Shown in pieces: positions 6,172 to 52,471 of a stretch of 64,000 nt of DNA. The DNA is from Mytilus edulis (Eukaryota), in the NCBI RefSeq assembly GCF_963676685.1, contig NC_092350.1, forward strand, positions 20,522,001 to 20,586,000, given 5' to 3'. The notes below the pieces were generated by a model. That model had not been told where the DNA came from. It saw only the letters and a program-made list of their open reading frames with translations, and did not search any database. The translations under genes were made by a program, and so were the position numbers. Position 1 is the stretch's first letter; every line of letters starts with the position of its first letter.

Positions 6172-8160
6172 ATATCCTCCAATACCACCAAGATTGATTT
6201 ACAGCCACATAGCTATCTTCCTAGCAGTTGGATTCCTCATGTCAGCAAGAGTGAAAAGAAAAGAATTGTCCTTGGTTTATGCTGGTCAACTGTTATATTT
6301 TGCTTACAATACATATACAAATGATAATCTACGATATACTGAACCACAAAGGGTAAGACCAAATAAAATAATAAACATGTATTTCTTTTAGCATGTTTAG
6401 AGAAAATAGCTATAGAAATTTCATTTTAACAGAAAATATTTGTTTATATTGTTTAATTTAAACATACATGTATACATATCAGATGTTTAATTCGATGTCA
6501 ACAGCTTTTATACTGAAAAATCACCACAAAAAATGTTTCACTAATGGTCACCAGCTTTCACACAGAAGATCACCACCAAAATTGATTCACTTATGAAACC
6601 TGTGCATTTACACAGATAAATCATGAGGAAAAGGATTCACTCAAAGTTGCTAGCACTGAATCAGAAAACTCATCACCAAAAATTCTCTGATAGTCAACAG
6701 CATTTCCACAGAAAGTCATCTCCAAGATTGATTCACCCACACATGCTACATGTAGCATTGAATGGAAAAAATCACCACCAAAAGTGATTTACTAATGCTA
6801 ATAGTTACCAGCTTATATACAGAAAATTCATCACCAAAATTGATTCACTCAATCTCCATCTTTTACACATAAGAAATCACCACCAAAAGGGATTCACTCA
6901 TACATCATGTATACAGACACCAACTTTTACACAGAAATAAAAATCAGCCAAAAGTGATTCATTCACAGTCGGTAGCCTTAACACAGAAAAATAATCACCA
7001 AAAGTGATCGATTCAGTCACTGAATCACATTGTGAAAAATGTTTATTTATCTTTTCATTTTTGCAACAACTTAAGGAGGCTCGACTCGAGGGTATAAAAA
7101 TTTCAGAAAAAAATCAAACATTTGTTTTTCATTACAAATTTTATTTATTTCATTTTGTAGTTGTTACTTCATCATATGGTACAAAAATCATTCAAAACAA
7201 TCAATTCGTGTTGGCCCCAGATGACTTTCAAAATGTATACATCATTGAAAAAGTTCCAAATTATCTCCCTTTGGTGGAAAAATGCCATTTTTTGGCTCTA
7301 AAATTGAAATATCTTTTTCAACTCATCGGTGACCTATCTTTTTTAATATAATTTCCATATAAGCTGTACTTAAACTAAATTATTGTAAAATGTTAGCGAT
7401 TTCTGTAATAAATTTCTTTTTTTTATTTCGATATTACCTTTATTTCTCCTATTACTTCAACAGAAAAAAAACACCTTTACAAAAATGTATGCTTCTTTCG
7501 AAGGCAGATTGTGAGCGCAAATGAACGGTGACCCCACTTTTTTATTTTATTTTTCTATTAACTATAAGATAAAGTTCATTTATAGAAAAATATAGAGAAA
7601 TCCTATATAAATGATTTAGACCCGCGAACCCCCTTAAAAGTTTATACTAGAGACTTAAATGGGTCAATACATTATGTGTTTTTTTCTTTTTTTTTCAGAT
7701 AAGGATGTCAGTAAGATTGGTTGGCTGTGCTGGTGTATTGGTATTATTCTCTTATTTCCAAGAGCAAGTCAAATCCAGACAACTTAGAAAACTTGGAGAA
7801 ACATTAGTTGGAATATTTCTAATTGCCTATGTATATATAATCAATAACACTTATGAAGATAAGCGAGCCTTCCTAATGCACATCCCTGGTGGGGATTGGA
7901 GTAGATATTTCATTACTTTAGTTTTAGCTTGTGGTGCTATAAGCTTCTTCTCAGGATATTTTTTACGTGATGTGTCTATATCATTAGCAATAGTCTTCGC
8001 AATACTGACAGTAGCTATAGACTGTGACATTCAGTATTGGGTGAATAAAAGAGGGATGCTATATTGGAACCAAGTTAGGGTTATTGCAGATGATTTATGT
8101 ATAATTATTGGATTTTGTTTGTTAATTTCAAGGGGAGATAACAAAATAAAAATGGATTAA
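6172..8160 (+). CDS. TMEM101: TMEM101-like multi-pass membrane protein; coding exons 6172-6352 and 7699-8160; upstream exon(s) not found in the window
   Basis: Canonical AG/GT boundaries join in phase 0 (…YTEPQR|IRMSVR…). The protein matches TMEM101 motifs as I recall them (FLMS.RVKR, EDKRAFLMHIPGG, FFSGY, IDCDIQYW, YWNQ). It ends in KIKMD. Confidence 0.88.
6510..7030. repeat. Degenerate ~44-bp minisatellite in the TMEM101 intron
   Basis: Recurring aaatcaccaccaaaa..gattcact...cacag units, about 11 copies. Confidence 0.7.
7075..7633. mobile_element. Non-autonomous DNA transposon with TTAA TSD (Kolobok-like termini)
   Basis: TTAA at 7071-7074 and 7634-7637; imperfect TIR GGAGGCTCG / CGAACCCCC. 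Purine-purine termini plus TTAA fit Kolobok. Confidence 0.65.
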
Positions 8161-10283: not shown

Positions 10284-13200
10284 TCATTCACATCTCTTAC
10301 AGAAATGGGGACACTCATTTCTCAGGTTGGTGTAGATTCTGCAGTACATGTCCTGTAAATCATTGGTATAGCCATTACAATAACCAGGACTTGATACAGC
10401 ACAATTTACTGAAAAAAAGATACATTAAGAATTAAACTTGGAATCTCAAGTGAAAATTTCCGAGAAAAAACTCAGTATTTTCAATCTGAGCGAAAACTCT
10501 CTACGTAATTCACAGAGACACTTGTCTCATAAAAAAAAATCTATATAGGAATTGTTTTCTGAGATAAGTGCCTGTGGTAATTCAAGTTCATGAGTGCTCC
10601 ATATCACCAATTTTTTTTCATGTTCTTGGCTAGATATGTCGACCACTTTACATGTCATGTATTGACATTTTTAAAAAGAACACAGACATAGCGTAGTATC
10701 AATATATTATAAATTTAAATATGACAACAAAAAATAAATAATGAACAGATAACTTTACAAAAAAAAATAAATATATCATCTTGAATATGAAAAAAAAATG
10801 TAAATCTGATATGTGTTACGCCATGCAAGTGCATCTGTATACAAGAAAGACTTACAAGACTGGCATTCATCCCCTTGGAAAGGACTGTTAGGATGATTAA
10901 TACATGTGCATTCACATGTACCTAAATCTAATGATCCATCATTCATGCACATTTTCCCGCCACAATCTATAAATGTATAACAAAGAGCTATTTACAAGTA
11001 ATTTTTAGTGCCACAAGAACTTTAATCAGTTCTAGATTAAAATATGAAAAATTCAATTGTAAAAGAAACTATAACACAAAACTGCAAATATGAACCAGTG
11101 AAGTATTATAAATGATGATGATGCAGTTATAGCGGTTTTTTGTTGAGCCTGCAACATTTTGGCACGCTTTGACTTTTTTTGCATCAGTAATTTTGTCAAG
11201 AAATCATCAAATTTAATGAAACCAAGACAGAAGTTTTTTGTGACCAAAAAGACAGACTAAGTATTGAAATCAAGATTGTGAAAATACATTTTTGTTCTAT
11301 TTTCCATTTACAGATAAATTGACTTAACGGTTTTTGGTAATCAACAAAACAATACAGTTTGTGGTTCAAATTTATCAGACATCAATAACTATGTTAAAAT
11401 TTCGTGGACTTGTGCAACTTGAACAGAAGCTTCTTCAAGATCATGAAAAAGCATTTGAAGAAAGTAAAATAGATTTATAAGAGGCGGATTTAGGGGGGGG
11501 GACGGGCCCGGGCCCCCCTTTTCTGGGAAAAATTTGGTTGCTTATATATGGAATCACTGAAGCATGACCAAAGCGGCCCCCCTCTTAGGCAGTCAAAGGG
11601 CCCCCACTTATGAAAAATTCTGGATCCGCCACTGTTTATGATTTTAGTTTCAATGTTTTAGTGAAAAGGGACATTTTTGGCAGTCAGCATTATGTACACT
11701 TTTAAACTGACACCAACACCGGAACCTTTATGATTATTAATTAAATATTTGTAGAAGTGACACAGGCATATTGATCAACTATTCGGTGTCGAAGCATAAT
11801 AAGGTCATTTTAAACTGATAATCTGAACTTTTTTTAACCAATCAGTAAGTAGCTATGCATAAATCAAAAAAGATTATTTTTTATACTTTTAGATTGCTGC
11901 ATGAAATGACTGATGTCAATTAAAAGCAAACAATACATTGTCATGTAACTTGCGTCTTCGTGCACATGGATACTTTTTGTATTTGAAAAAACATTCATAA
12001 AGTGCCTCAGATTTTCTATTATATGTCCTATAATTCTATGTTCTAATATATTTTTCGTATTAGATAACAATCTGAGCGTCTTTTTGACGTGCACTCTTGA
12101 CTTAAGATTATGGCCTTACTTACTTCGTATTTCTAACTTGAGGGCCCTCATGGGGTTTTTGATTATGTGATTACTTGGCCTTTTTTTTAATGATTATTTG
12201 ATTATTAAGCCAAATATTTCATGATTATTTGATTACCTAGGACTGTATTTTTAGTTTATGATTATTTGATTACTAAAGATAAGCAAATATCTAATGATTA
12301 TGTGATTATATTGGCAAAAAAATGGTGATTATGTGATTACTAGGACCCCCCCATGAGGGGCCTCTAACTTTTAAAACTTGTTTTTCATAAATGGATTGAA
12401 CAAAGATTATGATTTCGACCTCATACATGTACATAACACATGACAAAAGTTTTCACAGTTACTGTGAGAACTTTTGTGAGTTTAAAAGTAAAAATGCTGC
12501 CTTTCAAAGATTAAAACACAGCTTAAAACTTAGGTGAAAAAAACCCCAGTTTAAATTTAATAGTAAAATGTTTTTGTTGTGACAGCATAGCCTGGTTTTC
12601 TTTTTTCAAAATAAATTTTGACAATATTACCGCATAAGCCGTCAACACAATTGTTCGGACAGGCTTCACATGGTTGTCCATTTTTCCATGGCACTGAATA
12701 TTCTTCCCACACCAATCTAAATAATAAAATATATTCTTTACAAGGGTTGTGCGAACTTCATTACAAAAGGATGAAAGCTTTACAATTCTAAATAAGAAAT
12801 TTAATAATATATCTTACTTAATAATACTGTAATGTTTATTGGTCGTCATGGTAATAAACCAGGAGAATCTTGTTGTATTTTATGCAGAAAGAAGCGTTGA
12901 GTGGATTAAGACGTTTGTTGGGGAAATTAGTAACCGTGTCGAAAGTTATAGGGGTGATCGTAAGGGACTCTCTATGCTCCGTGAGGATAACATTTAGAGA
13001 ACACCCCTATCAAGTAAATAGTGGTATCGACCACGGGTATATAAAAGAATGAGAAACTGCATTCGATGCTGTCGATGAGCTGTCAATATTCAAGAGATTG
13101 TACGTCGGATATATAAAGTGCTAAAAGAGCCTTAATATTCAAAGAACACTTTGTACCAGGTACAAAGTAAACGTACAAGTTGAACGGATTGACAAGACAG

Positions 13201-16200
13201 ACTGTCCCACTCGGAGGACGGCTGTTCCAGCCCGCACTGTCTGGTAGTGACAGACTCCCATTCGGAGGACAGGCTTTACCAGCACACACTGTCTGATAAA
13301 GACAGACTGTACCAGCCATACTGTCTTTTAGTGACAGACAAACCCATCTTGAGGACAGGCTGTCTTATTGTATTATATTTGTATATATATTATAATTGTC
13401 TGTTGTTACTTTATATCGGCAAAGAGTCGGTGTGTATATTTTAGTTCATTGTGCATAGCATAGATAGTTACAGTTTTTGGTATTGACGTATTGTTTGTGG
13501 ACAACTTGGATCAAAGTATTTACTGGAACGTTCGTTTAATGGTTACACGTTACAATACCAAGGATTTATATAATAATGGTTATCCTTGATAAAACTCCAA
13601 CAACTATTAAATGTAACCATAGTAACTTATATAACTGTATTTTAAAACCCCTTAGTAACCAATATTCTGGCATTACACATTCTGGAATTTTAATACAATT
13701 ATTAAGCACTCCTTGTATGTCGATTATTAAACTTTGCCCTTTCCAACAAAATATTAAGGCATTCCCAAAAATAATTGATGATATACTTCCTATTGTATAT
13801 ATTATTATATTGATACTTAAATTATTGTGCCAACCGGCCTCAAACTTCAACTTTGGCCTTGTATTTTTTTCTCATCTCGTGGCAACATTTTTAATAATTA
13901 AAAATCTGGTTTTTTTTTTAGAGGTTTACATTTTATATCCTATGAATTTAACCAAGAGTCTCTTGTAGATCTATACATATATATTTACATACGTGTATGC
14001 GTAATTGCAAACAAAATATGCAGAACAACCACACACTCCCCGGGCACAACCAATACGGTTCGTCTTCCAGTAAAGTATCTGAAAGAAAACATAGCAATTA
14101 AAATATTAAGATGTGGTCTAACTGCAAAAGGTACAACTATCTACCAAAGACCAAAGTATAATATTTTTATCAAACGTTAAAATTGTATAGCTTTAATGTA
14201 TATTTCAATCTCCGTTTATAAATTAAGAAACTATTAAGAAACTAAGGTTCACACTCCCTTTTGAAATAAAAGCTGACAAAACTAGGTGGGTTGGTTATTC
14301 TAGGCATTATAGTACATGACCGTTGGCTAACGTTACTCGTAAGGGTAACACAAGAAAATCCTACGGCGGCACGGAATTTAGTATTTTTTATTTCCTACAC
14401 CTATAATTTAACCTGGTAAAAACATTTTGAATGGCAAATTGTTCTGACTTGTTCATTTCTTATATCAAATTGTTTATTATATACTATATAGTGCATGCAT
14501 TACATGTTACTCTTGTTTTACCTGGGCAGCATGTAGTACATACTATATAGTGCATGCATTACATGTTACTCTTGTTTTACCTGGGCAGCATGTAGCACAT
14601 ACTATATAGTGCATGCATTACACGTTACTTTTGTTTTACCTGGGCAGCATGTAGAACATATTATATAGTGCATGCATTACACGTTACTCTTGTTTTACCT
14701 GGGCAGCATGTAGTACATACTATATAGTGCATGCATTACATGTTACTCTTGTTTTACCTGGGCAGCATGTAGCACATACTATATAGTGCATGCATTACAC
14801 GTTACTCTTGTTTTACCTGGGCAGCATGTAGCACATACTATATAGTGCATGCATTACACGTTACTCTTGTTTTACCTGGGCAGCATGTAGTACATACTAT
14901 ATAGTGCATGCATTACATGTTACTCTTGTTTTACCTGGGCAGCATGTAGCACATACTATATAGTGCATGCATTACACGTTACTTTTGTTTTACCTGGGCA
15001 GCATGTAGTACATACTATATAGTGCATGCATTACACGTTACTCTTGTTTTACCTGGGCAGCATGTAGTACATACTATATAGTGCATGCATTACACGTTAC
15101 TCTTGTTTTACCTGGGCAGCATGTAGTACATACTATATAGTGCATGCATTACACGTTACTCTTGTTTTACCTGGGCAGCATGTAGTACATACTATATAGT
15201 GCATGCATTACACGTTACTCTTGTTTTACCTGAGCAGCATGTATCACATACTATATAGTGCATGCATTACATGTTACTCTTGTTTTACCTGGGCAGCATG
15301 TAGTACATACTATATAGTGCATGCATTACACGTTACTCTTGTTTTACCTGAGCAGCATGTATCACATACTATATAGTGCATGCATTACATGTTACTCTTG
15401 TTTTACCTGGGCAGCATGTAGTACATACTATATAGTGCATGCATTACACGTTACTCTTGTTTTACCTGAGCAGCATGTATCACATACTATATAGTGCATG
15501 CATTACATGTTACTCTTGTTTTACCTGGGCAGCATGTAGTACATTCTATATAGTGCATGCATTACACGTTACTCTTGTTTTACCTGGGCAGCATGTAGTA
15601 CATACTATATAGTGCATGCATTACAAGTTACTCTTGTTTTACCTGAGCAGCATGTAGTACATCCTGTTTATTACATACTATATAGTGCATGCATTACATG
15701 TTACTCTTGTTTTATATACTATATAGTGCATGCATTACATGTTACTCTTGTTTTATATACTATATAGTGCATGCATTACATGTTACTCTTGTTCTATATA
15801 CTATATAGTGCATGCATTTCATGTTACTCTTGTTTTACCTGGGCAGCATGTAGTGCATGTTACTCTTGTTTTACCTGGGCAGCATGTAATACATCCCAAG
15901 CATTTCCGGTAAGCGATCCAGTCCCATACTCAAAGTCATCTCCTTCTTTAAACCATTTATTCAGACAATCTGACCAACCTATTGACCCATAACACAAGTT
16001 CTGTCCAGTAGCAACACCAGGAAGTGCTGTAATAAATAATTTTCTTATGGAAAAAAAATATTGAGATGCAACTAAGTGAAAGATCAACTGGAATTCAACT
16101 GAACGAAACATTAATCATTCCATTTGTAGAGTTCAGGTTTGGCAGACGACCTTCTTAATACAAAATAATAAAAAGTTGAAAGCATGATGAAAAACATGAA

Positions 16201-19200
16201 AACATTATTTTAAAAGTGAATATACGTTTGGGTATTATTGCAAAGTTTACATAAAGTGTACTGTTAAATCTTTAAGTATTATTTGTGAAAAAAATATCAT
16301 ATAGATTCAGTCAAACAAAAACGACTATAGAAATTGATAACTGGGTTGGGGTGGGGTGTTAATTCGAATTGATTTCATGAAAAGCATGAATTATTATAGA
16401 TATTGACGTCTAAAATTATTTTGTACTAGTATTGTGGAAAATGTTTACAGAAAGTTTACTGTTAGTTTTAATAGATCTTTTTTTTAAGTCTTTAACTGTG
16501 TTATTTGTGAAAAAAATATCATATATATTCAGTCAAACAAAAACGACTATAGAAATTGATAACTGGGTTGGTGGGGAGGGGTGTAATTAGTCGAATTGCT
16601 TTCAGAAAATATCACACGTACAATCAGAATATCTGTCATAGTAATTATCATGTTCCATAGAATATCTCAGTGCGTGTTTCATGGCCTCTTCTGCTAAGGC
16701 TTCATCCCATACCTAACAAGGAGAAAACATGACTTTTGTATATAACTATATAACAATACTATGTGTACAATTATATTAGAATTCTATGTCTACCATTATA
16801 TTACAATACTATCTGTACAACTATATTACAATACTAGTGTAGTGTAACTGTAATACTATATATGTGTACACATTTTTGGGGTCTTTTATAGCTTTTTATG
16901 AATACCTTATTTTTCTTGGCCCATTCTTCTCTATTTTTAATTCAAGCACTAAGTCTTCATTATTCTCTTTTTTTATTTTTTGGTCTATTTTTGACATGGA
17001 TCATCGTTCTTCAATGTTTTGTTTGGATCAACCAACAGCTTTCATTTTGAAAGTGTTAACTATTGGCATTGAATGGTTTTTATAACCTTCCTTTTTTCTC
17101 GTTCATCCCAACATTTCACCGAACAGGTTTTACAGCGGAATGTGTTTCGGTTCCTAACATAACGGGCTCCACAAGAGGAGCAGAAACTATTAATATTAAG
17201 TTCCCTCTTTCTCCAATTCAGCTGCGCATTATGCTTTGAGAAAAAGTATTGTTTATCTCATTTTCTTTCTGCAATCTTTCATTGGTTCTATTTATAATGC
17301 TTCCTTCTGATTCTTCTCTGAGTTCTTAAAAAAATTGTTAATCAACAAATATGCATATGTAACTTATTGTAAAGTCTTGAATAATTTTATATATGATACA
17401 GTGGAATTTGTGCTTTTATATTTTCAATAAACTTACCATTTTCATCATGTTTGTTGCATTAGGAGCAATACGTTTTCTGAAGGCGTTGTGGGAATCTACA
17501 ATTAGTTTCTGGGTGTACGGTGTCACTTTACCGGGAACCTTTAGTGTAGAATTAAAGAATGGAATATATATATATTTAATTTATCTATACGAACTTGATA
17601 ACTATCATACTTAAAATCCCAATACAATGACCAGTTTCCAAAATATAGCCCAGCAGAAGCTATACAACGTTTGTATTTTGCTTTAAAGTTAAATCCATTG
17701 ATATTAGGAAAGCATATATGATTATACAATCCCTTTCTAAAATTTAACTATATTTGACAGATATATCGATATAATATAAAGTACTGACTGGAAAATCATG
17801 AATAGCACTAAACATAATAGTCTTGAGATGTTTCTGTTCTATTGTTTTTACTAATAAACCATTTTACCATTATAGTTGTAAAAATGACAGTTACTTGACT
17901 GCATTCGCCAGTCCATTATTCCCCTAATTTCATATCTGTTTTTGTTGTATTGTTTCAGGATAAAAGTACTTTTAAAAATTAAAATGCCCAATACAAAATC
18001 GAGGATTATAATTATACTCACTGCCAAAATTTCAGAGACACCTAAAACGGAAACAACGTTAATTTATCAGCTTATGTTCATCATGATGATGTTACTTGAA
18101 ATTAATGCATTTACCTGCCTTAATTAAAACTTCTATATTTGTTAATTGTTCATAATGTATACGTTTCATGGTCAATAAACAAGTGAGGGTGTAAAACATA
18201 ACGAAAGGAAGTTTTTGTTCATAAATAATTTATTTGCGTTTGAGGGCACGAACAAGAAAATAATGATATTTCAATTGATCCATTGGCGTGTTAACATCAC
18301 TTTCAACACGATTGTGCTATTTCGTGGTGGTCAGTTTTTATTGATGAAGAAAGCAGGATAGCCCAGATTGAACCACCAACATTTGGTATTTAAACTAGCT
18401 CCTCTAAACAATTACGATTTGAGTCGAGCACACCTACCACGTGCGAGATTCGAATTCATCACCACCTCCGTGTTGACAGGCTAGTGATACAATAGTTAGA
18501 CTACTTAGACCCCTCCTCAATCACGGAACAGAAGAAATAACTGAAAATCTTATGAAATGGTATGCAGGAAAATTGAGTTTCATGACACCCAGTTATTACC
18601 AAAGGCCCCCTGCGCCAAAAACTTGACATTAACTTCATCTCGCATGCCTTAAAGTGAGAGTAATGAAACAACCCCTTTGATAGAATAAGGAGTGTATAAT
18701 GTTTGTGTATATGTATGAAATCATATCAACCAGATAATACCTAATAACGGTTATTCTGAAAAAGTCAAAGGCACTGAAAATATCTAATGAGCACTTTTAC
18801 GAGTTTTGATTTCTATACGGGGCTTGCACCAAACTCACTTTCTCTTTCCTTAAGTTTGCATTTACTCCTGCAGATATAATCCATCATACAATTTAGTTTT
18901 GAAGACTTTTTATATCAAATAAAACCCCTTTAAATCAAGATGAACTGCATGCGTACCTGATTAAAACTTCTTTCTCTCTGTTTCTATTTAGAGCATACTT
19001 GAATTTACAAACCCTATATCTCTTAAAAGTATCGTTTGCCTTTGATTAATATAAAATAAACCATGCAAAAGCAGATTATCTGAAATTCTGAACACAAACT
19101 TTGTAATAATAATAATAATAAAATTGAGAATGGAAATGGGGAATGTGTCAAAGAGACAACAACCCGCCCAAATAAAAAACAACAGCAGAGGGTCACCAAC

Positions 19201-19749
19201 AGGTCTGTTTTTATGTCTTATTAAATGTCTTTTTGCGTTTGTTTCTCTGTCTTATATTTTCTCCCATTTATTTGTATTGAAGTCCTGTCATGTAATGGTG
19301 TCATTTTAATTTTATAATTAACATTGCCATTAAAGCGGTAGCTTTGGAATGCCACAAAACCAGGTTCAACCCTCCATTTTTTTTTCTAAAAATGCCCTGT
19401 ACCAAGTCAGAAAATGGCCATTGTTATATTATAGTTCGTTTCTGTGTGTGTTATATTTTAATGTTGTATTTCTGTTGTGTCGTAGTTCTCTTATATTTAA
19501 TGCGTTTCACTCGGTTTTACTTTGTAACCCGGATTTGGTTTTTCTCTATCGATTTATGAATTTCGAACAGCGGTATACTACTGTTGCCTTTATTTGCTAC
19601 ACTTTTCAATATCGGAATTTCTAAAATTATAACAATAATTCATTGACTTAGGATATATTTGTACAAAAAAAAATATATTTTCAATGTATATACTTACAAA
19701 TAAAAGCAGTAACAAGAACAACTGGAATCAAACGTCCTAGGTCACCCAT
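10284..19749 (-). CDS. Secreted CAP-superfamily (SCP/CRISP-like) cysteine-rich protein with EGF-like and ShK-like C-terminal modules, 274 aa. Exons 19749-19698, 18041-18022, 17538-17437, 16712-16622, 16026-15875, 14078-13993, 12716-12631, 10966-10856, 10408-10284
   Basis: All nine exons have GT/AG boundaries with matching phases (825 nt). Signal peptide MGDLGRLIPVVLVTAFICVSEILA. CAP motifs HNAFR, NMMKMVWD, GQNL, W..E, LHAAQ, IGCA, FVCNY. Hinge GQPCEACPNNCVDGLC, then DCGGKMCMNDGSLDLGTCECTC, then a six-Cys CPHFCKRC end. AATAAA lies ~25 nt after the stop. Confidence 0.9.
11479..11634. mobile_element. Second copy of the 5-bp-TSD MITE, in a CAP gene intron
   Basis: Homologous to 9515-9651; TTTAT at 11474-11478 and 11635-11639. 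Confidence 0.78.
12140..12364. mobile_element. MITE with internal GATTA(T/C) sub-repeats and 6-bp TSD
   Basis: TIR gagggccctcatgggg / ccccatgaggggcctc; TAACTT at 12134-12139 and 12365-12370. Confidence 0.8.
12828..13554. mobile_element. Probable solo LTR (Gypsy-type) in a CAP gene intron
   Basis: TGTAATGT...ACGTTACA inverted termini, 4-bp TSD ATAC (12824-12827 and 13555-13558), internal short repeats, no coding capacity. Confidence 0.72.
14479..15888. repeat. 59-bp tandem repeat array overlapping the CAP exon 5 donor
   Basis: Twenty regular 59-bp units (register shifts 1 nt per 60-nt line), then shorter partial units running into the exon end. Confidence 0.95.
18285..18510 (-). mobile_element. 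Degenerate tRNA-derived SINE (related copy at ~42745-42920)
   Basis: Reverse-strand B-box-like sequence (gattcgaa(t/c) on +) and homology between the two copies. Confidence 0.5.
19330..19595 (-). repeat. High-copy interspersed repeat family C (…aaaggcaacagtagtataccgctgttc… end)
   Basis: Related copies at ~32050-32195 and, inverted, at ~39305-39600. Confidence 0.7.
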
Positions 19750-21699: not shown

Positions 21700-22170
21700 A
21701 ATTTTCAACGATTAAATTCAAATAGGCTTTTACTGGTAACAAAAGCTGTTTTAGTCCCGTCTTGGGGGTCCATGCCCACTTGATGATAACCACTAGCCAA
21801 ATCGAGAGTACTAAACAATAGGTTTCCCCTTAGTGCATCAAGACAGTCCTCTATTCTAGGCAAAAGGAAATTATCTTTAATAGACACATCGTTGACTAAG
21901 CGAAAATCAATATACAGGCGAATTGACTGGTCCTTCTTGCGAACAACTACAATAGGGTAGGTCAATGGTGACTGGAAATGACGTATAATACCCCATCAAG
22001 CATTTGTTGTATTTCTTTGTCAACCTCTTTTCTTTGAGCCAAAGGTACACGTCATGGGTTTTGTTTTATGGGATGATCATCTCCTGTATTTATTTTATGT
22101 TGTTTTATGTCTCTCCTACCCAGGTCATTTTTGGATATTGCAAAAGCGCCAGAGTATTTAGTTAAAACTA
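21700..22170 (-). mobile_element. Ty3/Gypsy LTR-retrotransposon RT fragment (degenerate)
   Basis: HKINTGD..PIKQ, PIVVVRKKD..IRLYIDFR, LPRIEDCLD, FSTLDLASGYHQV, KTAF; stops and frameshifts present. Confidence 0.88.
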
Positions 22171-41591: not shown

Positions 41592-43399
41592 TATGGAATG
41601 CCAAAACTGTCTTGTTATGACCATTTTCATTATATGATGTACATTTACCTTAATATGATGTGCACTTGTCATTATATGATGTGAAAACACCTTTATGTGA
41701 CGTGCAACTATGCTTATATTATGTGCAAGTATCTTTATATGATGTCCAAACATCTTTATATGATGTGCAAATACACTTATATGATGTGCAAAAACACTTA
41801 TATGATGTGCATACATACTTATATGATGTGCAAAAGTACTTGTATGATGTGTAAACATTCTTATATGATGTGCAAATGTACTTATATGATGTGCAAATAT
41901 CCTTATATGATGTGCAAATGTACTTATATGATGTGCAATTGTACTTATATGATGTGCAAATGTACTTATATGATGTGCAAATATACTTATATGATGTGCA
42001 TTTTCCCTTATATTATGTGCAAACATCTTTATATGATGTGGTTGTGTCATTATATTATGTGCTTGAAATCTTATATCATGTGGTTCGGTTAACTTCATTA
42101 TATGTTGTCGAAACGTCATTATATGATGTGCTTTCATCGTCGTTATGGTCAATGAACATGATTACGATTAGAATGATTACTGTCTACGTCATAACTGATT
42201 CCGATCTGCTTCTGCAGAATTAATATAAACCAGGCTCAAATCTGTAGCTATTTAAAAAGAGAAAAACCTTGACATGTTTGTTCCTCGATTTAAGATGAAA
42301 AATATCACACCAAATATTGATGGAAAATTGTCAAATTATGAATTTTAATCGATGGGTCTACAATAATGAACTTATGGGATCTACAATAATGAGCATACAG
42401 TTAAAGTTATTAAGTTTTAGAAATAGATCTTTAATCTTTTAAGCGAAAGTGCATTTTTTCGATAAAGTGAGATAGTGCATTTTAACAAAAATTAACGTTT
42501 CAAACATTTCGGCGGAAGATTAAGATCAATTAATACAGGAACTAGTTGAAGAATTTCCCGGTAGCGGCGAAAATATGATGAAACAAATTTTGGGGCTCTT
42601 ATTTATAGCTTGCTGTTCGGTTTGAGCAAAAGCTCCGTGTTGAAGGCCGTAATTTAACCTATAATTGTTAACTTTTTACACATTATGACTTAGATGTAGA
42701 GTTGTCCCATTGGCACTCATATAATGTCTTCTTATTTCTATTCATTCGTGGCTTTGAGTTTATATTGATGAAAGAACCACCGACTTTCGGTAGGAAAAAC
42801 TAATAATTCTATTCAATTAAGATTGGAGTCGAGCTTACCTGACACGTGTGGGATTCGAACTCATAATCTACATGTAAGTGTTGACAGGCTGGATACTTGG
42901 ACCACTCGGCCACCGAGCCCCCCCCCCCCCCCCCCTCCAAAAAACAAGGAATTAAAGGAGATATGGGATGACCTTCAACTCGGTGCATGACATTTGCGTG
43001 CTTCTCTTTATTATGTTTTCATGCATTTATTGCACATCTTCACTTACATGATTATGAATGTATGCTTTACGTCCAGCGGAAAATTGAAAATAAAAAAGAC
43101 TATGTGGTATGATTGCCAATGAGACAACTCTCCACAAGACACCAAATGACACAGAAATTAACAACTAAAGATCACCGTAGGACCTTCAACAATGTGTAAA
43201 GCCCATACCGCATTATCAGCTATAAAAGGCCCCGAAATGACAAATGTAAAACAATTCAAACGAGAAAACTAACGGCATAATTTATGTACCAAAAAATGAA
43301 CGAAAAACAAATACCGGTATGTAACACATCAACAGACGACAACCACTGAATAACAGGCTCCTAATCGTACGAGAACATATTAATGTGAAATGAATATTA

Positions 43400-43650
43400 A
43401 TCCTGTTTTGTATTAGACCGACACCCTGAGTAAGATTTTTAACATGCTAGTTCACAGAAATCCGTTTCACCTTACCCGGACAGATTATTCTGATTCCGAG
43501 CCGAACAAGTCTTTGATTTTACACCTTAATTTAGCAGGGAAGCAGCAAATACCAATTTTAAATTCTTTGGTTTAAGTTGAACCGGCCGGGATTCGAAACT
43601 ACGACCAGCAACACTAGAGGCTAACATGCTACCATGAAAGCACCGCCACT
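43400..43650 (-). mobile_element. tRNA-derived SINE, degenerate
   Basis: Minus-strand head tggtagcatgttagcc...gtttcgaatcccggccgg resembles A/B boxes. Confidence 0.5.
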
Positions 43651-45089
43651 AGACAGTTACCCGTAATATAAAAGGAAAGCCGTTCAGATATACAACTCCG
43701 TATACAGGGCTAAAATACTGACCATTGATTTTGTTTTTGGTGATTGCGGGGGTGTGGGGGGGGGGAAGGTTGGGAGGGGGGCATATTTTTTGGAAATGTT
43801 TGATTCCAAGTTTCTTAAAAGATATTTTATCTTTTTAGAAGGGAATCAAAATAATTGTTTCCATTGATAATGAGAGAAAAAATAAAAACTATAATGAAAT
43901 TAAAAAAAATAACCATATTATTTAAAAAAAAAAAGGGTATTTTTCATTAAAGTCGAAAAATATCTTTGTCCTGGAACAATGAAGTACACGTGCTCCTGCC
44001 CACACTGCATGTTTACATCACGATGACCGTGAGGGCATTCCGATGTATTGCCGCAACAGAGATTTGACTTTCGATTTTGACTGGTAACCGATCGTATAAA
44101 AACACAGACATAATCGAGTGCAAAATAACATTCCTTGTCGCTTCAAGTAATACTCATAAAAACATTTTTTTAGAACATATTTAATTAATAATATGAAAAT
44201 GTTGTGTCGTTAGAAATATATTATATTATATATATGTAAGTAAAAAATCATTAAGATCTATGCACACGTACAGAAAAATTGTGTTAACGCATGCGGAAGA
44301 ATATCTCAAGGACGTTTTTGCGGGACAAATGAATGCCTACATATATCCAATCTATTAGAAACTCCGAATTATTACAGAAGAGTTTTCACCATGCACTTGC
44401 ACTGCACTATTATTAGAATAGTAGAATAGAATGCTTTACATTTGGATGAAAATTATATATACATGTAACTGTTATATACAAATATTAATTTAATATATAA
44501 CAACAAACCAGAGCATACAGGTATTTATCATATGTTTAGTAGTAAATACAGTAGTTTTGCATATGTGATAAATAGCCTGCTGTTTAATCAATATCGCGCA
44601 ACTTTGATGCGCACCCTTTATCGCATACCCTTTATCACACCCCTACCCTTTATCGCATACCCTTTATCACACCCCTACTTTTTTTTTTTTTTTTTTTTTT
44701 ACATAAAGTCAGTTTTTTTTTTTTTTTGCTTAAGAAAATTTTTCCTCAAAATAGGTAAATTTTTTTAATGACGTCATTGTTTGGTATGTGACGTCACGAA
44801 CGTCGAGTTTTAATATTGTATGTGACGTCACGAACGTCAAGTTTTCATATTTTTTGGCACACTAAATGTAACTATGAAAAATACAAAACACACAAATTAA
44901 TACAATAATAAACTAAATATTTTTAAAACAACAGCACGCAAATTGTAAGGTAACCCAGGTGCTTCGGATAAGTAATTGAGCAGTTCTTTTAAGGTCTTTG
45001 AAACAAGACAAAAGTAGAAATGAAGGTAACCCAGTGCTATGGATCCGAAAACAGTTCATATAATATAATACTCTTCCGTTGAAATATAT

Positions 45090-45241
45090 GATAAAGTGTA
45101 TAATACATGGCAAAATCCGTATCACATGCCGTATCACCCTCGACCAATATCATCCCTCGGGCCTAAAGGCCCTTGGGCTGATATTGATGTCTCGGGATGA
45201 TACGACATATGATACGGATTTTGCCATGTATTATTCTCTAT
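45090..45241. mobile_element. Foldback MITE, ~150 bp
   Basis: ataatacatggcaaaatccgtatca... / ...tgatacggattttgccatgtattat around a central gggcct-aa-aggccc. Confidence 0.75.
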
Positions 45242-45369
45242 GTATCACTACAATATACTTGTGATTACAGTGAGGTTGAAATCCCTTTTATTTATTCATC
45301 ATCCACGCACGAACTTGTCTCAGAAAAAAATATATCTCAGTAAGTTAACCTCACTTTCAGGTATAGAGA

Positions 45370-48300
45370 TGTGATTTTCTTTTAGACAAGTGCGTGTGAC
45401 CATCCACGAGAACTTGCGGTCATCCGATGTTCAGTACTTCAGTCCTTTGATACTTTCTGTTCTAGTAAATATTACATCAGCCAATGAAGTTCAGCCTTCA
45501 CATTTTTGAAGTTGTATATAAATCCGACAAAACCGAGAATCCCAATGGTCTTTAAACAGAAAATTGAATGGAGCGTTTTCAGATCCGCGTAAGCATAGCT
45601 TGGACACACAATATCTGTAATTTAATTAGATTGGTGTCTGAATGAACATAAAACACTGTATTTATTTATTGTTCACTGAGGCCTGGTGGTCTCTGACAGA
45701 GAGAGAGTTGTGTTTTAAATTCTTCTAAGGTTCTTGGTTCGATTCCCGTCTTGGAAGAAAATTTCAGGGACTTAATTTTCGGCTCTCCCTTGACACCATT
45801 TGCGAGTATGGTCTTGAGGAAACGATGATAGTCCGTCGGAAGGGAACGATAAATGGCTGACCCGTGTTAAGAGAGAGCCATATCTCTTGTACGTTAAAGA
45901 CACCCTTGTAGATTTCGAAAAAGAGCAGGCTAATGCCGCTACAAGGCAGCACTCGCACCCGCAAAGTGGAAAGGATTAATATAGGTTGAAAAACTTGTTT
46001 CCCAATCCACTTTAAATAAATATGTTTAAACTAAATTCTTCTAATTGAAGATTTTATACGGCGGTGACTTTTAATATTTTGCGTTTATCTTTAAAACTAC
46101 AATAGATTAAAAAAAAAATAATAGTGCGATGTGTCTGAATATATTCTATGGTAAATTTTTAGGTCCCACTTTGGGCAATTTTGGCTCATATGAGTTTTGT
46201 TGTTTTGTTGCCTATTATCTTGATACATAGAGCAACCTTTTCTTAGCAAAATAGTTTTCTCGTTTAAATTGCTTTACATTGTCATTTCGGGGCCTTTTAA
46301 AGCTGACTATGCGGTATAGGCTTTGCTCATTGTTGAAGGCCGTACGGCTACCTATAGTTGTTAATTTCTGTGTCATTTTGGTCTCTTGTGAAGAATTGTC
46401 TCATTGGCAATCATACCACATCTTCTTTTTTTATATTATAAGAACAGATTTAAAAATAAGTAAATAATAATTATTGTCATTTTCATCATTGGTGGTGGGG
46501 ACGTGGTAGGAAAGATGGGAATTCCATTAATTTTCTTCCAAGTAATTTCCGTGAAATAGAAAAAAAAACAATCAAGACCCCTCCCCCCCCCCCCCTAAAA
46601 AAACCCGCCAGAGAACAATTTCACACACCTTTTTCAATACTTTGTTTGTAATAACAAAAACAAAAAAACGCATTAAATTCCTTTTACGTTATAAGTTTAA
46701 AATAGCACGTCAATAGTGGATCTAGAACTTCAAGTGTGGAAGTTGTTTGCGACTTGGAATTAATTTGGATATGCCGGTTGTGGTCTTATTGATATTTATC
46801 ACACCTTCATTCAATATTACTAGTTTCAGATGAAACCATACTCTGCTAGAAGAAATTATTTGTTGAAAATAAGGATTTAGATTTTAACAGATGAGATTTA
46901 TTACACATAATAAATGTGGTCTAAGATTTTCAAAAGTTGAAATTGTCCAATTACCTATTATATTGTCCAATATCCGAAATCTAAATATATTGCTAGATTC
47001 AGCATATCAAAGAACCCTAAGAATTGCTTGTTTTAAGTCCAGTTTTGGCCCCTAATTTCTATAAAGTTTTTGTTTGGCAACAAAGTATTTACGGACAACG
47101 AACACATCGCAAAAACCTTATACGGCGGCAAATCTATAAATATAAACAATTGAATACCACTATTCTATTTAAAAAAAAAAATCAAAATTAAAGGCTCCTA
47201 TCACCTCTTTATGGGGGTTGCAAATGACCGGTCCATTATATTAGTCATCACCCTATCAATGTCCGGTTTTTGTCCATTTTTGTGTCTTTCTTCAGAAAAG
47301 TGATATATAAAGAGAAACTTCCACAGCTAAAATGATCAGCAAATTAAAGCAAACTTTACAATGAGCATAGAGCATGGCATAAAAGAATCATTTCTTTAAT
47401 TTAATAACTTTAACTGTATGCCCATTATTGTAGACTTCGTATGTTCATTATTGTAGACCCATTGATTAAAACTAAACTTTTCAATTCATAATTTGACAAT
47501 TTTTCAATAATATATGGTGTGATTTTCTTTTAGACAAGTGCGTGTGACCATCCACGAGAACTTGCGGTCATCCGATGTTCAGTACTTCAGTCCTTTGATA
47601 CTTTCTGTTCTAGTAAATATTACATCAGCCAATGAAGTTCAGCCTTCACATTTTTGAAGTTGTATATAAATCCGACAAAACCGAGAATCCCAATGGTCTT
47701 TAAACAGAAAATTGAATGGAGCGTTTTCAGATCCGCGTAAGCATAGCTTGGACACACAATATCTGTAATTTAATTAGATTGGTGTCTGAATGAACATAAA
47801 ACACTGTATTTATTTATTGTTCACTGAGGCCTGGTGGTCTCTGACAGAGAGAGAGTTGTGTTTTAAATTCTTCTAAGGTTCTTGGTTCGATTCCCGTCTT
47901 GGAAGAAAATTTCAGGGACTTAATTTTCGGCTCTCCCTTGACACCATTTGCGAGTATGGTCTTGAGGAAACGATGATAGTCCGTCGGAAGGGAACGATAA
48001 ATGGCTGACCCGTGTTAAGAGAGAGCCATATCTCTTGTACGTTAAAGACACCCTTGTAGATTTCGAAAAAGAGCAGGCTAATGCCGCTACAAGGCAGCAC
48101 TCGCACCCGCAAAGTGGAAAGGATTAATATAGGTTGAAAAACTTGTTTCCCAATCCACTTTAAATAAATATGTTTAAACTAAATTCTTCTAATTGAAGAT
48201 TTTATACGGCGGTGACTTTTAATATTTTGCGTTTATCTTTAAAACTACAATAGATTAAAAAAAAATAATAGTGCGATGTGTCTGAATATATTCTATGGTA

Positions 48301-51300
48301 AATTTTTAGGTCCCACTTTGGGCAATTTTGGCTCATATGAGTTTTGTTGTTTTGTTGCCTATTATCTTGATACATAGAGCAACCTTTTCTTAGCAAAATA
48401 GTTTTCTCGTTTAAATTGCTTTACATTGTCATTTCGGGGCCTTTTAAAGCTGACTATGCGGTATAGGCTTTGCTCATTGTTGAAGGCCGTACGGCTACCT
48501 ATAGTTGTTAATTTCTGTGTCATTTTGGTCTCTTGTGAAGAATTGTCTCATTGGCAATCATACCACATCTTCTTTTTTTATATTATAAGAACAGATTTAA
48601 AAATAAGTAAATAATAATTATTGTCATTTTCATCATTGGTGGTGGGGACGTGGTAGGAAAGATGGGAATTCCATTAATTTTCTTCCAAGTAATTTCCGTG
48701 AAATAGAAAAAAAAACAATCAAGACCCCTCCCCCCCCCCCCCCTAAAAAAACCCGCCAGAGAACAATTTCACACACCTTTTTCAATACTTTGTTTGTAAT
48801 AACAAAAACAAAAAAACGCATTAAATTCCTTTTACGTTATAAGTTTAAAATAGCACGTCAATAGTGGATCTAGAACTTCAAGTGTGGAAGTTGTTTGCGA
48901 CTTGGAATTAATTTGGATATGCCGGTTGTGGTCTTATTGATATTTATCACACCTTCATTCAATATTACTAGTTTCAGATGAAACCATACTCTGCTAGAAG
49001 AAATTATTTGTTGAAAATAAGGATTTAGATTTTAACAGATGAGATTTATTACACATAATAAATGTGGTCTAAGATTTTCAAAAGTTGAAATTGTCCAATT
49101 ACCTATTATATTGTCCAATATCCGAAATCTAAATATATTGCTAGATTCAGCATATCAAAGAACCCTAAGAATTGCTTGTTTTAAGTCCAGTTTTGGCCCC
49201 TAATTTCTATAAAGTTTTTGTTTGGCAACAAAGTATTTACGGACAACGAACACATCGCAAAAACCTTATACGGCGGCAAATCTATAAATATAAACAATTG
49301 AATACCACTATTCTATTTAAAAAAAAAAATCAAAATTAAAGGCTCCTATCACCTCTTTATGGGGGTTGCAAATGACCGGTCCATTATATTAGTCATCACC
49401 CTATCAATGTCCGGTTTTTGTCCATTTTTGTGTCTTTCTTCAGAAAAGTGATATATAAAGAGAAACTTCCACAGCTAAAATGATCAGCAAATTAAAGCAA
49501 ACTTTACAATGAGCATAGAGCATGGCATAAAAGAATCATTTCTTTAATTTAATAACTTTAACTGTATGCCCATTATTGTAGACTTCGTATGTTCATTATT
49601 GTAGACCCATTGATTAAAACTAAACTTTTCAATTCATAATTTGACAATTTTTCAATAATATATGGTGTGATTTTCTTTTAGACAAGTGCGTGTGACCATC
49701 CACGAGAACTTGCGGTCATCCGATGTTCAGTACTTCAGTCCTTTGATACTTTCTGTTCTAGTAAATATTACATCAGCCAATGAAGTTCAGCCTTCACATT
49801 TTTGAAGTTGTATATAAATCCGACAAAACCGAGAATCCCAATGGTCTTTAAACAGAAAATTGAATGGAGCGTTTTCAGATCCGCGTAAGCATAGCTTGGA
49901 CACACAATATCTGTAATTTAATTAGATTGGTGTCTGAATGAACATAAAACACTGTATTTATTTATTGTTCACTGAGGCCTGGTGGTCTCTGACAGAGAGA
50001 GAGTTGTGTTTTAAATTCTTCTAAGGTTCTTGGTTCGATTCCCGTCTTGGAAGAAAATTTCAGGGACTTAATTTTCGGCTCTCCCTTGACACCATTTGCG
50101 AGTATGGTCTTGAGGAAACGATGATAGTCCGTCGGAAGGGAACGATAAATGGCTGACCCGTGTTAAGAGAGAGCCATATCTCTTGTACGTTAAAGACACC
50201 CTTGTAGATTTCGAAAAAGAGCAGGCTAATGCCGCTACAAGGCAGCACTCGCACCCGCAAAGTGGAAAGGATTAATATAGGTTGAAAAACTTGTTTCCCA
50301 ATCCACTTTAAATAAATATGTTTAAACTAAATTCTTCTAATTGAAGATTTTATACGGCGGTGACTTTTAATATTTTGCGTTTATCTTTAAAACTACAATA
50401 GATTAAAAAAAAATAATAGTGCGATGTGTCTGAATATATTCTATGGTAAATTTTTAGGTCCCACTTTGGGCAATTTTGGCTCATATGAGTTTTGTTGTTT
50501 TGTTGCCTATTATCTTGATACATAGAGCAACCTTTTCTTAGCAAAATAGTTTTCTCGTTTAAATTGCTTTACATTGTCATTTCGGGGCCTTTTAAAGCTG
50601 ACTATGCGGTATAGGCTTTGCTCATTGTTGAAGGCCGTACGGCTACCTATAGTTGTTAATTTCTGTGTCATTTTGGTCTCTTGTGAAGAATTGTCTCATT
50701 GGCAATCATACCACATCTTCTTTTTTTATATTATAAGAACAGATTTAAAAATAAGTAAATAATAATTATTGTCATTTTCATCATTGGTGGTGGGGACGTG
50801 GTAGGAAAGATGGGAATTCCATTAATTTTCTTCCAAGTAATTTCCGTGAAATAGAAAAAAAAACAATCAAGACCCCTCCCCCCCCCCCCCCTAAAAAAAC
50901 CCGCCAGAGAACAATTTCACACACCTTTTTCAATACTTTGTTTGTAATAACAAAAACAAAAAAACGCATTAAATTCCTTTTACGTTATAAGTTTAAAATA
51001 GCACGTCAATAGTGGATCTAGAACTTCAAGTGTGGAAGTTGTTTGCGACTTGGAATTAATTTGGATATGCCGGTTATGGTCTTATTGATATTTATCACAC
51101 CTTCATTCAATATTACTAGTTTCAGATGAAACCATACTCTGCTAGAAGAAATTATTTGTTGAAAATAAGGATTTAGATTTTAACAGATGAGATTTATTAC
51201 ACATAATAAATGTGGTCTAAGATTTTCAAAAGTTGAAATTGTCCAATTACCTATTATATTGTCCAATATCCGAAATCTAAATATATTGCTAGATTCAGCA

Positions 51301-51820
51301 TATCAAAGAACCCTAAGAATTGCTTGTTTTAAGTCCAGTTTTGGCCCCTAATTTCTATAAAGTTTTTGTTTGGCAACAAAGTATTTACGGACAACGAACA
51401 CATCGCAAAAACCTTATACGGCGGCAAATCTATAAATATAAACAATTGAATACCACTATTCTATTTAAAAAAAAAATCAAAATTAAAGGCTCCTATCACC
51501 TCTTTATGGGGGTTGCAAATGACCGGTCCATTATATTAGTCATCACCCTATCAATGTCCGGTTTTTGTCCATTTTTGTGTCTTTCTTCAGAAAAGTGATA
51601 TATAAAGAGAAACTTCCACAGCTAAAATGATCAGCAAATTAAAGCAAACTTTACAATGAGCATAGAGCATGGCATAAAAGAATCATTTCTTTAATTTAAT
51701 AACTTTAACTGTATGCCCATTATTGTAGACTTCGTATGTTCATTATTGTAGACCCATTGATTAAAACTAAACTTTTCAATTCATAATTTGACAATTTTTC
51801 AATAATATATGGTGTGATTT
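45370..51820. repeat. Tandem triplication of a 2148-bp unit
   Basis: Identical ORFs at 45764, 47912 and 50060. By eye the copies differ mainly in homopolymer lengths and one substitution near 51075. Confidence 0.95.
45675..46033 (+). mobile_element. tRNA-derived SINE (also at ~47823-48181 and ~49971-50329)
   Basis: A-box-like tggtggtct, B-box GGTTCGATTCCC, a central segment (gtcggaagggaacgataaa...cgttaaagacaccc) resembling Deu/Nin-type cores as I recall them, and an AT-rich tail. Confidence 0.7.
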
Positions 51821-52471
51821 TTTCATCTTAAATCGAGGAACAAACATGTCAAGGTTTTTCTCTTTTTACATCTCAACCATTTTCCAAACGATAGCTACAG
51901 ATTTGATCCGGGTTTATATTAATTCTGCAGAAGTAGATCGGAATCAGTTATGACGTAGACAGTAATCATTCTAATCGTAATCATGTTCATTGACCATAAC
52001 GACGATGAAAGCACATCATATAATGACGTTTCGACATCATATAATGAAGTTAACCGAACCACATGATATAAGATTTCAAGCACATAATATAATGACACAA
52101 CCACATCATATAAAGATGTTTGCACATAATATAAGGGAAAATGCACATCATATTAGGATGTTTGCACATCATTTAAGGATCTTTGCACATCATATAAGTA
52201 TATTTGCAAATCATATAAGTACATTTGCACATCATATAAGTATTTATGCAAATCATATAAAGATGTTTGGACATCATATAAAGATACTTGCACATAATAT
52301 AAGCATATTTGCACGTCATATAAAGGTGTTTGCACATCATATAATGACAAGTGCACATCATGTAAAGGTAAATGCACATCATATAATGACAAGTGCACAT
52401 AAAAAAAGGTAAGTGCACATCATATAATGAAAAGGGTCATAAGAAGACAGTTTTGGCGTTCCATACTCAAC

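Follow-up and report, generated by a model that had tools for sequence, protein, structure and literature searches.

When the end of an exon and the 5' splice site behind it are multiplied many times within the following intron, is the authentic donor still selected, or do the copies compete with it and alter the output of the gene? This question is raised by intron 5 of a CAP/CRISP-family gene in a 64,000-nucleotide stretch of the Mytilus edulis contig NC_092350.1, hereafter the window, for which an initial annotation had proposed that the length of an array of donor copies could tune productive splicing through NMD. The gene comprises the following features:

10284..19749, minus strand: CAP/CRISP-family gene with nine coding exons and an open frame of 274 aa
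19749-19698, 18041-18022, 17538-17437, 16712-16622, 16026-15875, minus strand: coding exons 1-5
14078-13993, 12716-12631, 10966-10856, 10408-10284, minus strand: coding exons 6-9
15875..16026, minus strand: coding exon 5, ending ...VLHAAQ, with a phase 0 junction to exon 6
13993..14078, minus strand: coding exon 6, encoding the C-terminal part of the CAP domain; its acceptor is T-rich (T 0.65)

The host gene is intact. Its joined exons amount to 825 nt with a single terminal stop, every intron is bounded by GT-AG, and the deduced protein is identical to the database protein P0004 at 274 of 274 residues. The earlier assignment of the exon 5 end (...HAAQ) to donor 15874 was confirmed. In a search of longer proteins with exon 5 as protein query one of eight candidates matched, a Mytilus edulis CRISP. 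The CRISP protein cluster comprises seven members (P0001-P0007) from four Mytilus species, and those other than P0004 match the model at 225/265 to 270/274 aligned positions; they carry the automatic labels 'CRISP' and 'cysteine-rich venom protein Mr30-like'. Pfam CAP (PF00188) scored 60.2 bits on P0004 against a cut-off of 21.1; exon by exon, only one of seven exons gave a CAP match, below the cut-off, and the full-length protein was decisive. A search for Pfam ShK at the C-terminus, with E values up to 0.5-1, gave no match, and we take the six-cysteine tail of this CRISP merely to resemble that domain. Exon 5 is single-copy at the DNA level, and the gene as a whole is an ordinary one. A distant paralogous CAP exon (38%) at L010 1501-1644 (G000:C13) ends ...GHFTQ, compared with ...LHAAQ here, apparently at a weak-looking GTTTG donor. 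No tandem repeat was found in 3.1 kb at this exon, and the candidate of a paralogue carrying the same array was rejected on this ground.

Several further elements were observed in the window. A TMEM101-like open frame at 7651-8160 on the plus strand (Pfam PF15111, E 3.2e-23) lies tail-to-tail with the CRISP gene at a distance of about 2.1 kb, and the CRISP start codon is preceded, at a distance of about 2 kb, by a short, stop-flanked reverse-transcriptase fragment at 21705-21995 on the minus strand (RVT_1, E 8.8e-9). A 2,148-bp sequence is present in three tandem copies, nearly identical (99.9%), at 45370-51821 within the region 41714-52427, flanked by inverted repeats of about 750 bp (41714-42435 and 51674-52427, 84.5%) with 21-bp arrays. 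The arrangement has the appearance of a large foldback-type element whose interior was triplicated very recently, or of an assembly duplication.

The 12-mer CAGGTAAAACAA has 22 minus-strand matches in the window, where base composition would predict 0.0075 per strand. They mark 22 identical CAG/GTAAAACAA sites, namely donor 15874, a copy at 15838 and 20 array copies spaced exactly 59 bp apart between 15642 and 14521, so that the position, spacing and number of copies first described, about 21, were recovered in full. The splice-site copies and the repeats around them are arranged as follows:

15866..15877, minus strand: authentic donor CAG/GTAAAACAA, whose intron begins at 15874
15860..15862, minus strand: in-frame TAA at intron positions +13..+15
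15820..15888, minus strand: 36-bp duplication that includes donor 15838, second in order and the nearest competitor
15671..15837, minus strand: 41-bp sub-array of 4.1 copies, intronic part only, containing no donor
15643..15675, minus strand: remnant junction, 9 nt that match the flank behind the array plus 22 nt of exon end
14481..15662, minus strand: 59-bp minisatellite, 20.0 copies with 95% matches (TRF)
15188..15542, minus strand: three 118-bp dimers forming a higher-order repeat (lag analysis)

Each 59-bp unit consists of 18 nt of exon end and 41 nt of intron start. The exon-derived part had been put at about 14 nt; these 14 nt are exact, but the full exon part extends to 18 nt after one difference at position -15 (window position 15889), where the true exon end has T and all 21 copies have C or A. 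The donor-free 41-bp sub-array sits between the second donor and the main array, which begins 232 nt beyond the true donor. The array contains ten distinct unit types, the donor 9-mer is intact in all 20 units, and the proposed 118-bp periodicity is evident in the six units with donors 15524-15229, where no letters differ at lag 2 compared with four at lag 1. The authentic donor matches the U1 consensus at 7 of 9 positions and is joint best in the CRISP gene. Local folding gave the true donor a predicted accessibility of 0.028 and 17 of the 21 copy donors higher values of 0.057-0.159, among them 0.057 for the second donor 15838, whereas four units carrying C-to-T at position -4 (GCT-CAG) had an approximately tenfold lower predicted accessibility. 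Folding of the RNA from 15560-15960 pointed to no special structure (z = -1.83, 5 of 100 shuffles equally stable). Each unit moreover contains perfect palindromes 8 and 10 nt long that abut and might promote slippage.

Where did the unit come from? A 23-nt core of its intronic part has 21 exact matches in the genome (G000), all of them in intron 5, compared with 0 for the control, which indicates that the unit was born at this locus; since 21 of 21 core matches fall at one locus, an origin from a dispersed element was rejected. A 24-nt junction pattern, sought in metagenome contigs, gave no matches. The remnant junction at 15643..15675 may be the trace of an older and longer duplication, to judge from its sequence. 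Together with a second remnant junction in another DNA run (X3, see below) it suggests that the first duplication took in no less than 27 nt of exon together with some 52 nt of intron. In the scenario we propose, a stretch of roughly 75-80 bp across the exon 5/intron 5 junction would have been duplicated, internal deletions would have trimmed it to the 36-, 41- and 59-bp units, and slippage or unequal exchange would have amplified the 59-bp unit and later the 118-bp dimer. This amplification would have stretched intron 5 from about 443 nt to its present 1,796 nt; the former value, obtained by subtracting the amplified DNA, would place the intron near the shortest ones of the gene (447 and 483 nt). 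Local duplications were also observed in intron 4 (about 120 bp at 88%) and intron 3 (25 bp, 3.8 copies), at 16264-16609 and 16747-16841, respectively, which points to a general tendency of the CRISP region towards tandem duplication.

How unusual such an event may be was estimated from 200 kb sampled as 20 spaced stretches of two contigs, which contained eight minisatellites, or 40 per Mb (95% interval 17-79), some of the TRF periods in this sample being multiples of the true unit. With an assumed number of 150,000-350,000 donors this density gives about 180-1,900 donor-spanning arrays per genome by chance, an order of magnitude reached by arithmetic and not a count. A donor-like motif was found in none of the eight sampled minisatellites. 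The intactness of the donor in 20 of 20 units is not significant, because approximately nine mutation events would all spare the 9-mer with a chance of 0.23, and selection to keep or to purge the copy donors is thus not detectable.

The array, or most of its length, could in principle stem from assembly expansion, the outcome named by the initial annotation as a refutation, and the number of 20 units is indeed a figure from this assembly alone. Against this, the ten unit types stand in an ordered pattern, and repeat words were strongly over-covered in all three DNA-type runs examined, where the summed contig depths of repeat words and exon 5, compared over 15796-17600 and not to be read as copy numbers, were 146 versus 5.2 (X1), 1074 versus 63.5 (X3) and 600 versus 18 (X5). 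The exon 5 contig stops in each run at 15859, where the repeated words begin. We conclude that the array is not an assembly artefact and give an expansion of this kind next to no credence.

X1 is possibly the window's own source, while X3 and X5 represent organisms A and B with two species labels. Their flank alleles differ from the window by about 2% (9 differences in 476 nt for X3, 8 in 450 nt for X5). X5 contains the 59-bp unit in the register of the window, including a variant present in 4 of the 20 window units; X3 has a loose end matching a window unit variant, and a junction with 27 nt of exon that is absent from the window, whose own remnant junction has 22 nt. As both runs carry other flank alleles together with the repeat, the array is also present in other animals, which bear two species labels. 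Its layout varies between animals, and its presence under both labels is compatible with some persistence. One contig of X1, with a depth of 5.2, departs from the window only in a single base of exon 5, which it lacks at 15908 and which is present in X3 and X5; the gap would be a sequencing error or else a frameshift allele.

What would the use of a copy donor do to the mRNA? As had been predicted for the downstream donors, it retains GTA AAA CAA GAG TAA in frame and leads to the TAA at intron +13..+15, a stop at codon 144 of 274 inside the CAP domain; the four copy donors translated (15838, 15642, 15583 and 14521) all gave this same stop. Downstream of it remain 408 coding nt and three further junctions. 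In general, an mRNA is degraded when its premature stop lies far ahead of later junctions, and this would probably apply to the mussel transcript. The first donor 15874 is used in all seven database gene models, and the exon 5/6 junction reads ...HAAQ-ILYW... in the seven proteins of the cluster, without insertion. Since these are gene models, of which P0004 was possibly modelled on the same DNA, they show that the first donor yields the conserved protein and not that it is the sole donor used. From the raw RNA run X22, about 6% of which was read, three reads fell on the region and none in exons. In the RNA-type contig runs X15-X20 a fraction of 0.10-0.19 of the sampled words was present, exon-internal 31-mers making up 0.149 of the stretch; this would fit spliced mRNA, but we do not count it as evidence.

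A first monomer spanning the exon/intron boundary, a splice signal repeated head-to-tail and birth at the locus place the CRISP array among the junction-spanning minisatellites (F7-type or mirage), a class in print since at least 2006. According to Borensztajn et al. (2006; PMC1557585), only the most upstream donor is used in the 37-bp VNTR of human F7 intron 7, and the first donor alone in the minisatellites of LMNB2 and of PDGF intron 4, whereas two pseudo-sites are used besides the first donor in the IFN-inducible 6-16 gene and in CBS intron 13. These arrays share with ours the boundary-spanning first monomer, the identical donor repeated in the intron, and units of comparable size (31-100 bp) in comparable numbers (5-25). 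Each F7 unit, however, is given there only 4 nt of exon compared with 18 nt in the mussel CRISP, and the mussel array, described here from DNA sequence, is compound, combining parts of 36, 41 and 59 bp with a 118-bp dimer. Among invertebrates, PMC3087553 describes 'mirage' minisatellites in amphioxus Adh3 and in the globins BflGb6 and BflGb9, which left splicing undisturbed by RT-PCR and were proposed as raw material for intron gain. They resemble the mussel array as tandem duplications at exon boundaries with AG/GT signals and local homogenisation, and they show allele differences, as the mussel array may do; ours differs in belonging to a mollusc, in involving the donor side only and in having 21 copies compared with 3-6 in BflGb6. 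A literature search for a Mytilus intronic splice-site minisatellite found no paper among those searched, and mollusc cases may be unpublished.

The mussel array is a locus-born exon 5/intron 5 minisatellite in an intact CRISP gene, and by analogy with these genes we consider it likely that its 21 extra donors are silent or nearly so because the most upstream donor would be chosen. Their silencing is deduced from other genes, and its transfer to the mussel would extend a first-donor rule derived from mammalian cells. Exon definition or 5'-to-3' scanning would select donor 15874. A copy, where occasionally used, would lead to the stop at codon 144 in a transcript that would probably be degraded. 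On this view the array would be tolerated, drifting DNA and not a regulator. Given that F7 uses its most upstream site and that 6-16 and CBS leak to at most two further sites, distal units should alter little; if the rule holds here, 15838 would be the sole serious competitor and array length would have little effect.

This leaves room for a constant, non-adaptive leak, in which 15838 and perhaps the third donor take a visible minority of splicing events and generate stop-containing mRNA independently of array length. The second donor is identical to the first, lies merely 36 nt away and has the higher predicted accessibility (0.057 versus 0.028), and the use of two pseudo-sites besides the authentic one in 6-16 and CBS, reported in PMC1557585, sets a precedent. 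However, none of the seven database models, all with the first donor, shows a leak, and F7, with a spacing of 37 nt, gave none in 50 extra clones according to the same paper; we therefore regard a leak of visible size as rather improbable. Still less credence can be given to the length-dependent regulation suggested by the initial annotation, in which more units would mean more splicing or U1 binding at copies, hence NMD, and allele length would set the CRISP output. In its favour, every copy donor translated runs into the stop at codon 144, ahead of 408 coding nt and three junctions, the structure varies among animals (X3 has another junction), the title of a CBS paper ties its 31-bp VNTR to lower enzyme activity, and at many human loci splicing shows an association with the length of a tandem repeat (PMC10078293). 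The latter work sets a precedent for repeat length shifting splice-site use but rests on genotype-splicing association and, in the passages cited here, does not concern repeated donors. Against such tuning, F7 pseudo-site use drops with distance and the most upstream available site alone is taken (PMC1557585), the variable array starts 232 nt downstream of the true donor, and no selection signal is detectable on the copy donors. The idea is thus unsupported, though not refuted, and we regard it as a very slim prospect.

The units might also act as acceptors, either as zero-length recursive sites or by releasing 21-nt mini-exons that add YVLHAAQ in frame and avoid the stop. Both AG/GT, which was found in every unit as first noted, and TAG-21 nt-GT occur in the consensus unit, and the 21-nt cassette is in frame and free of stops. 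The pyrimidine tract had been judged poor, which applies to T, whose share upstream of both AGs is 0.30 and thus below all eight real acceptors (0.40-0.70), but not clearly to total pyrimidines, which at 50-55% fall within the range of real acceptors (45-80%). The introns known to host recursive splice sites are very long, tens of kb, whereas intron 5 is short, 1,796 nt or 1.8 kb, and recursive splicing has no evident role in it; a recursive step at a copy would rebuild the same donor and hence be harmless. The extra heptapeptide is present in none of the seven database proteins, and we consider acceptor activity extremely unlikely. A bolder combination would see in the array common to two mussel species a natural dial of NMD loss, set by length and by unit variants including the four with GCT-CAG, together with the 21-nt cassette spliced in as a new mini-exon; it appears very unlikely.

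Under the favoured reading of silent or nearly silent copies, the locus as it stands is of little importance, a further instance, in an ordinary gene, of an oddity already described. Should array length tune the output after all, the locus would provide a direct example, of a kind seldom found, of gene dose set by repeat number via donor competition, and if the dial and mini-exon reading were true, intron or exon gain would have been caught in the act. Since the base at -15 separates the true exon end from all 21 copies, short RNA reads suffice for counting donor use; wild alleles of this locus could thus serve as a test bed to show whether the mammalian first-donor rule applies in a mollusc.
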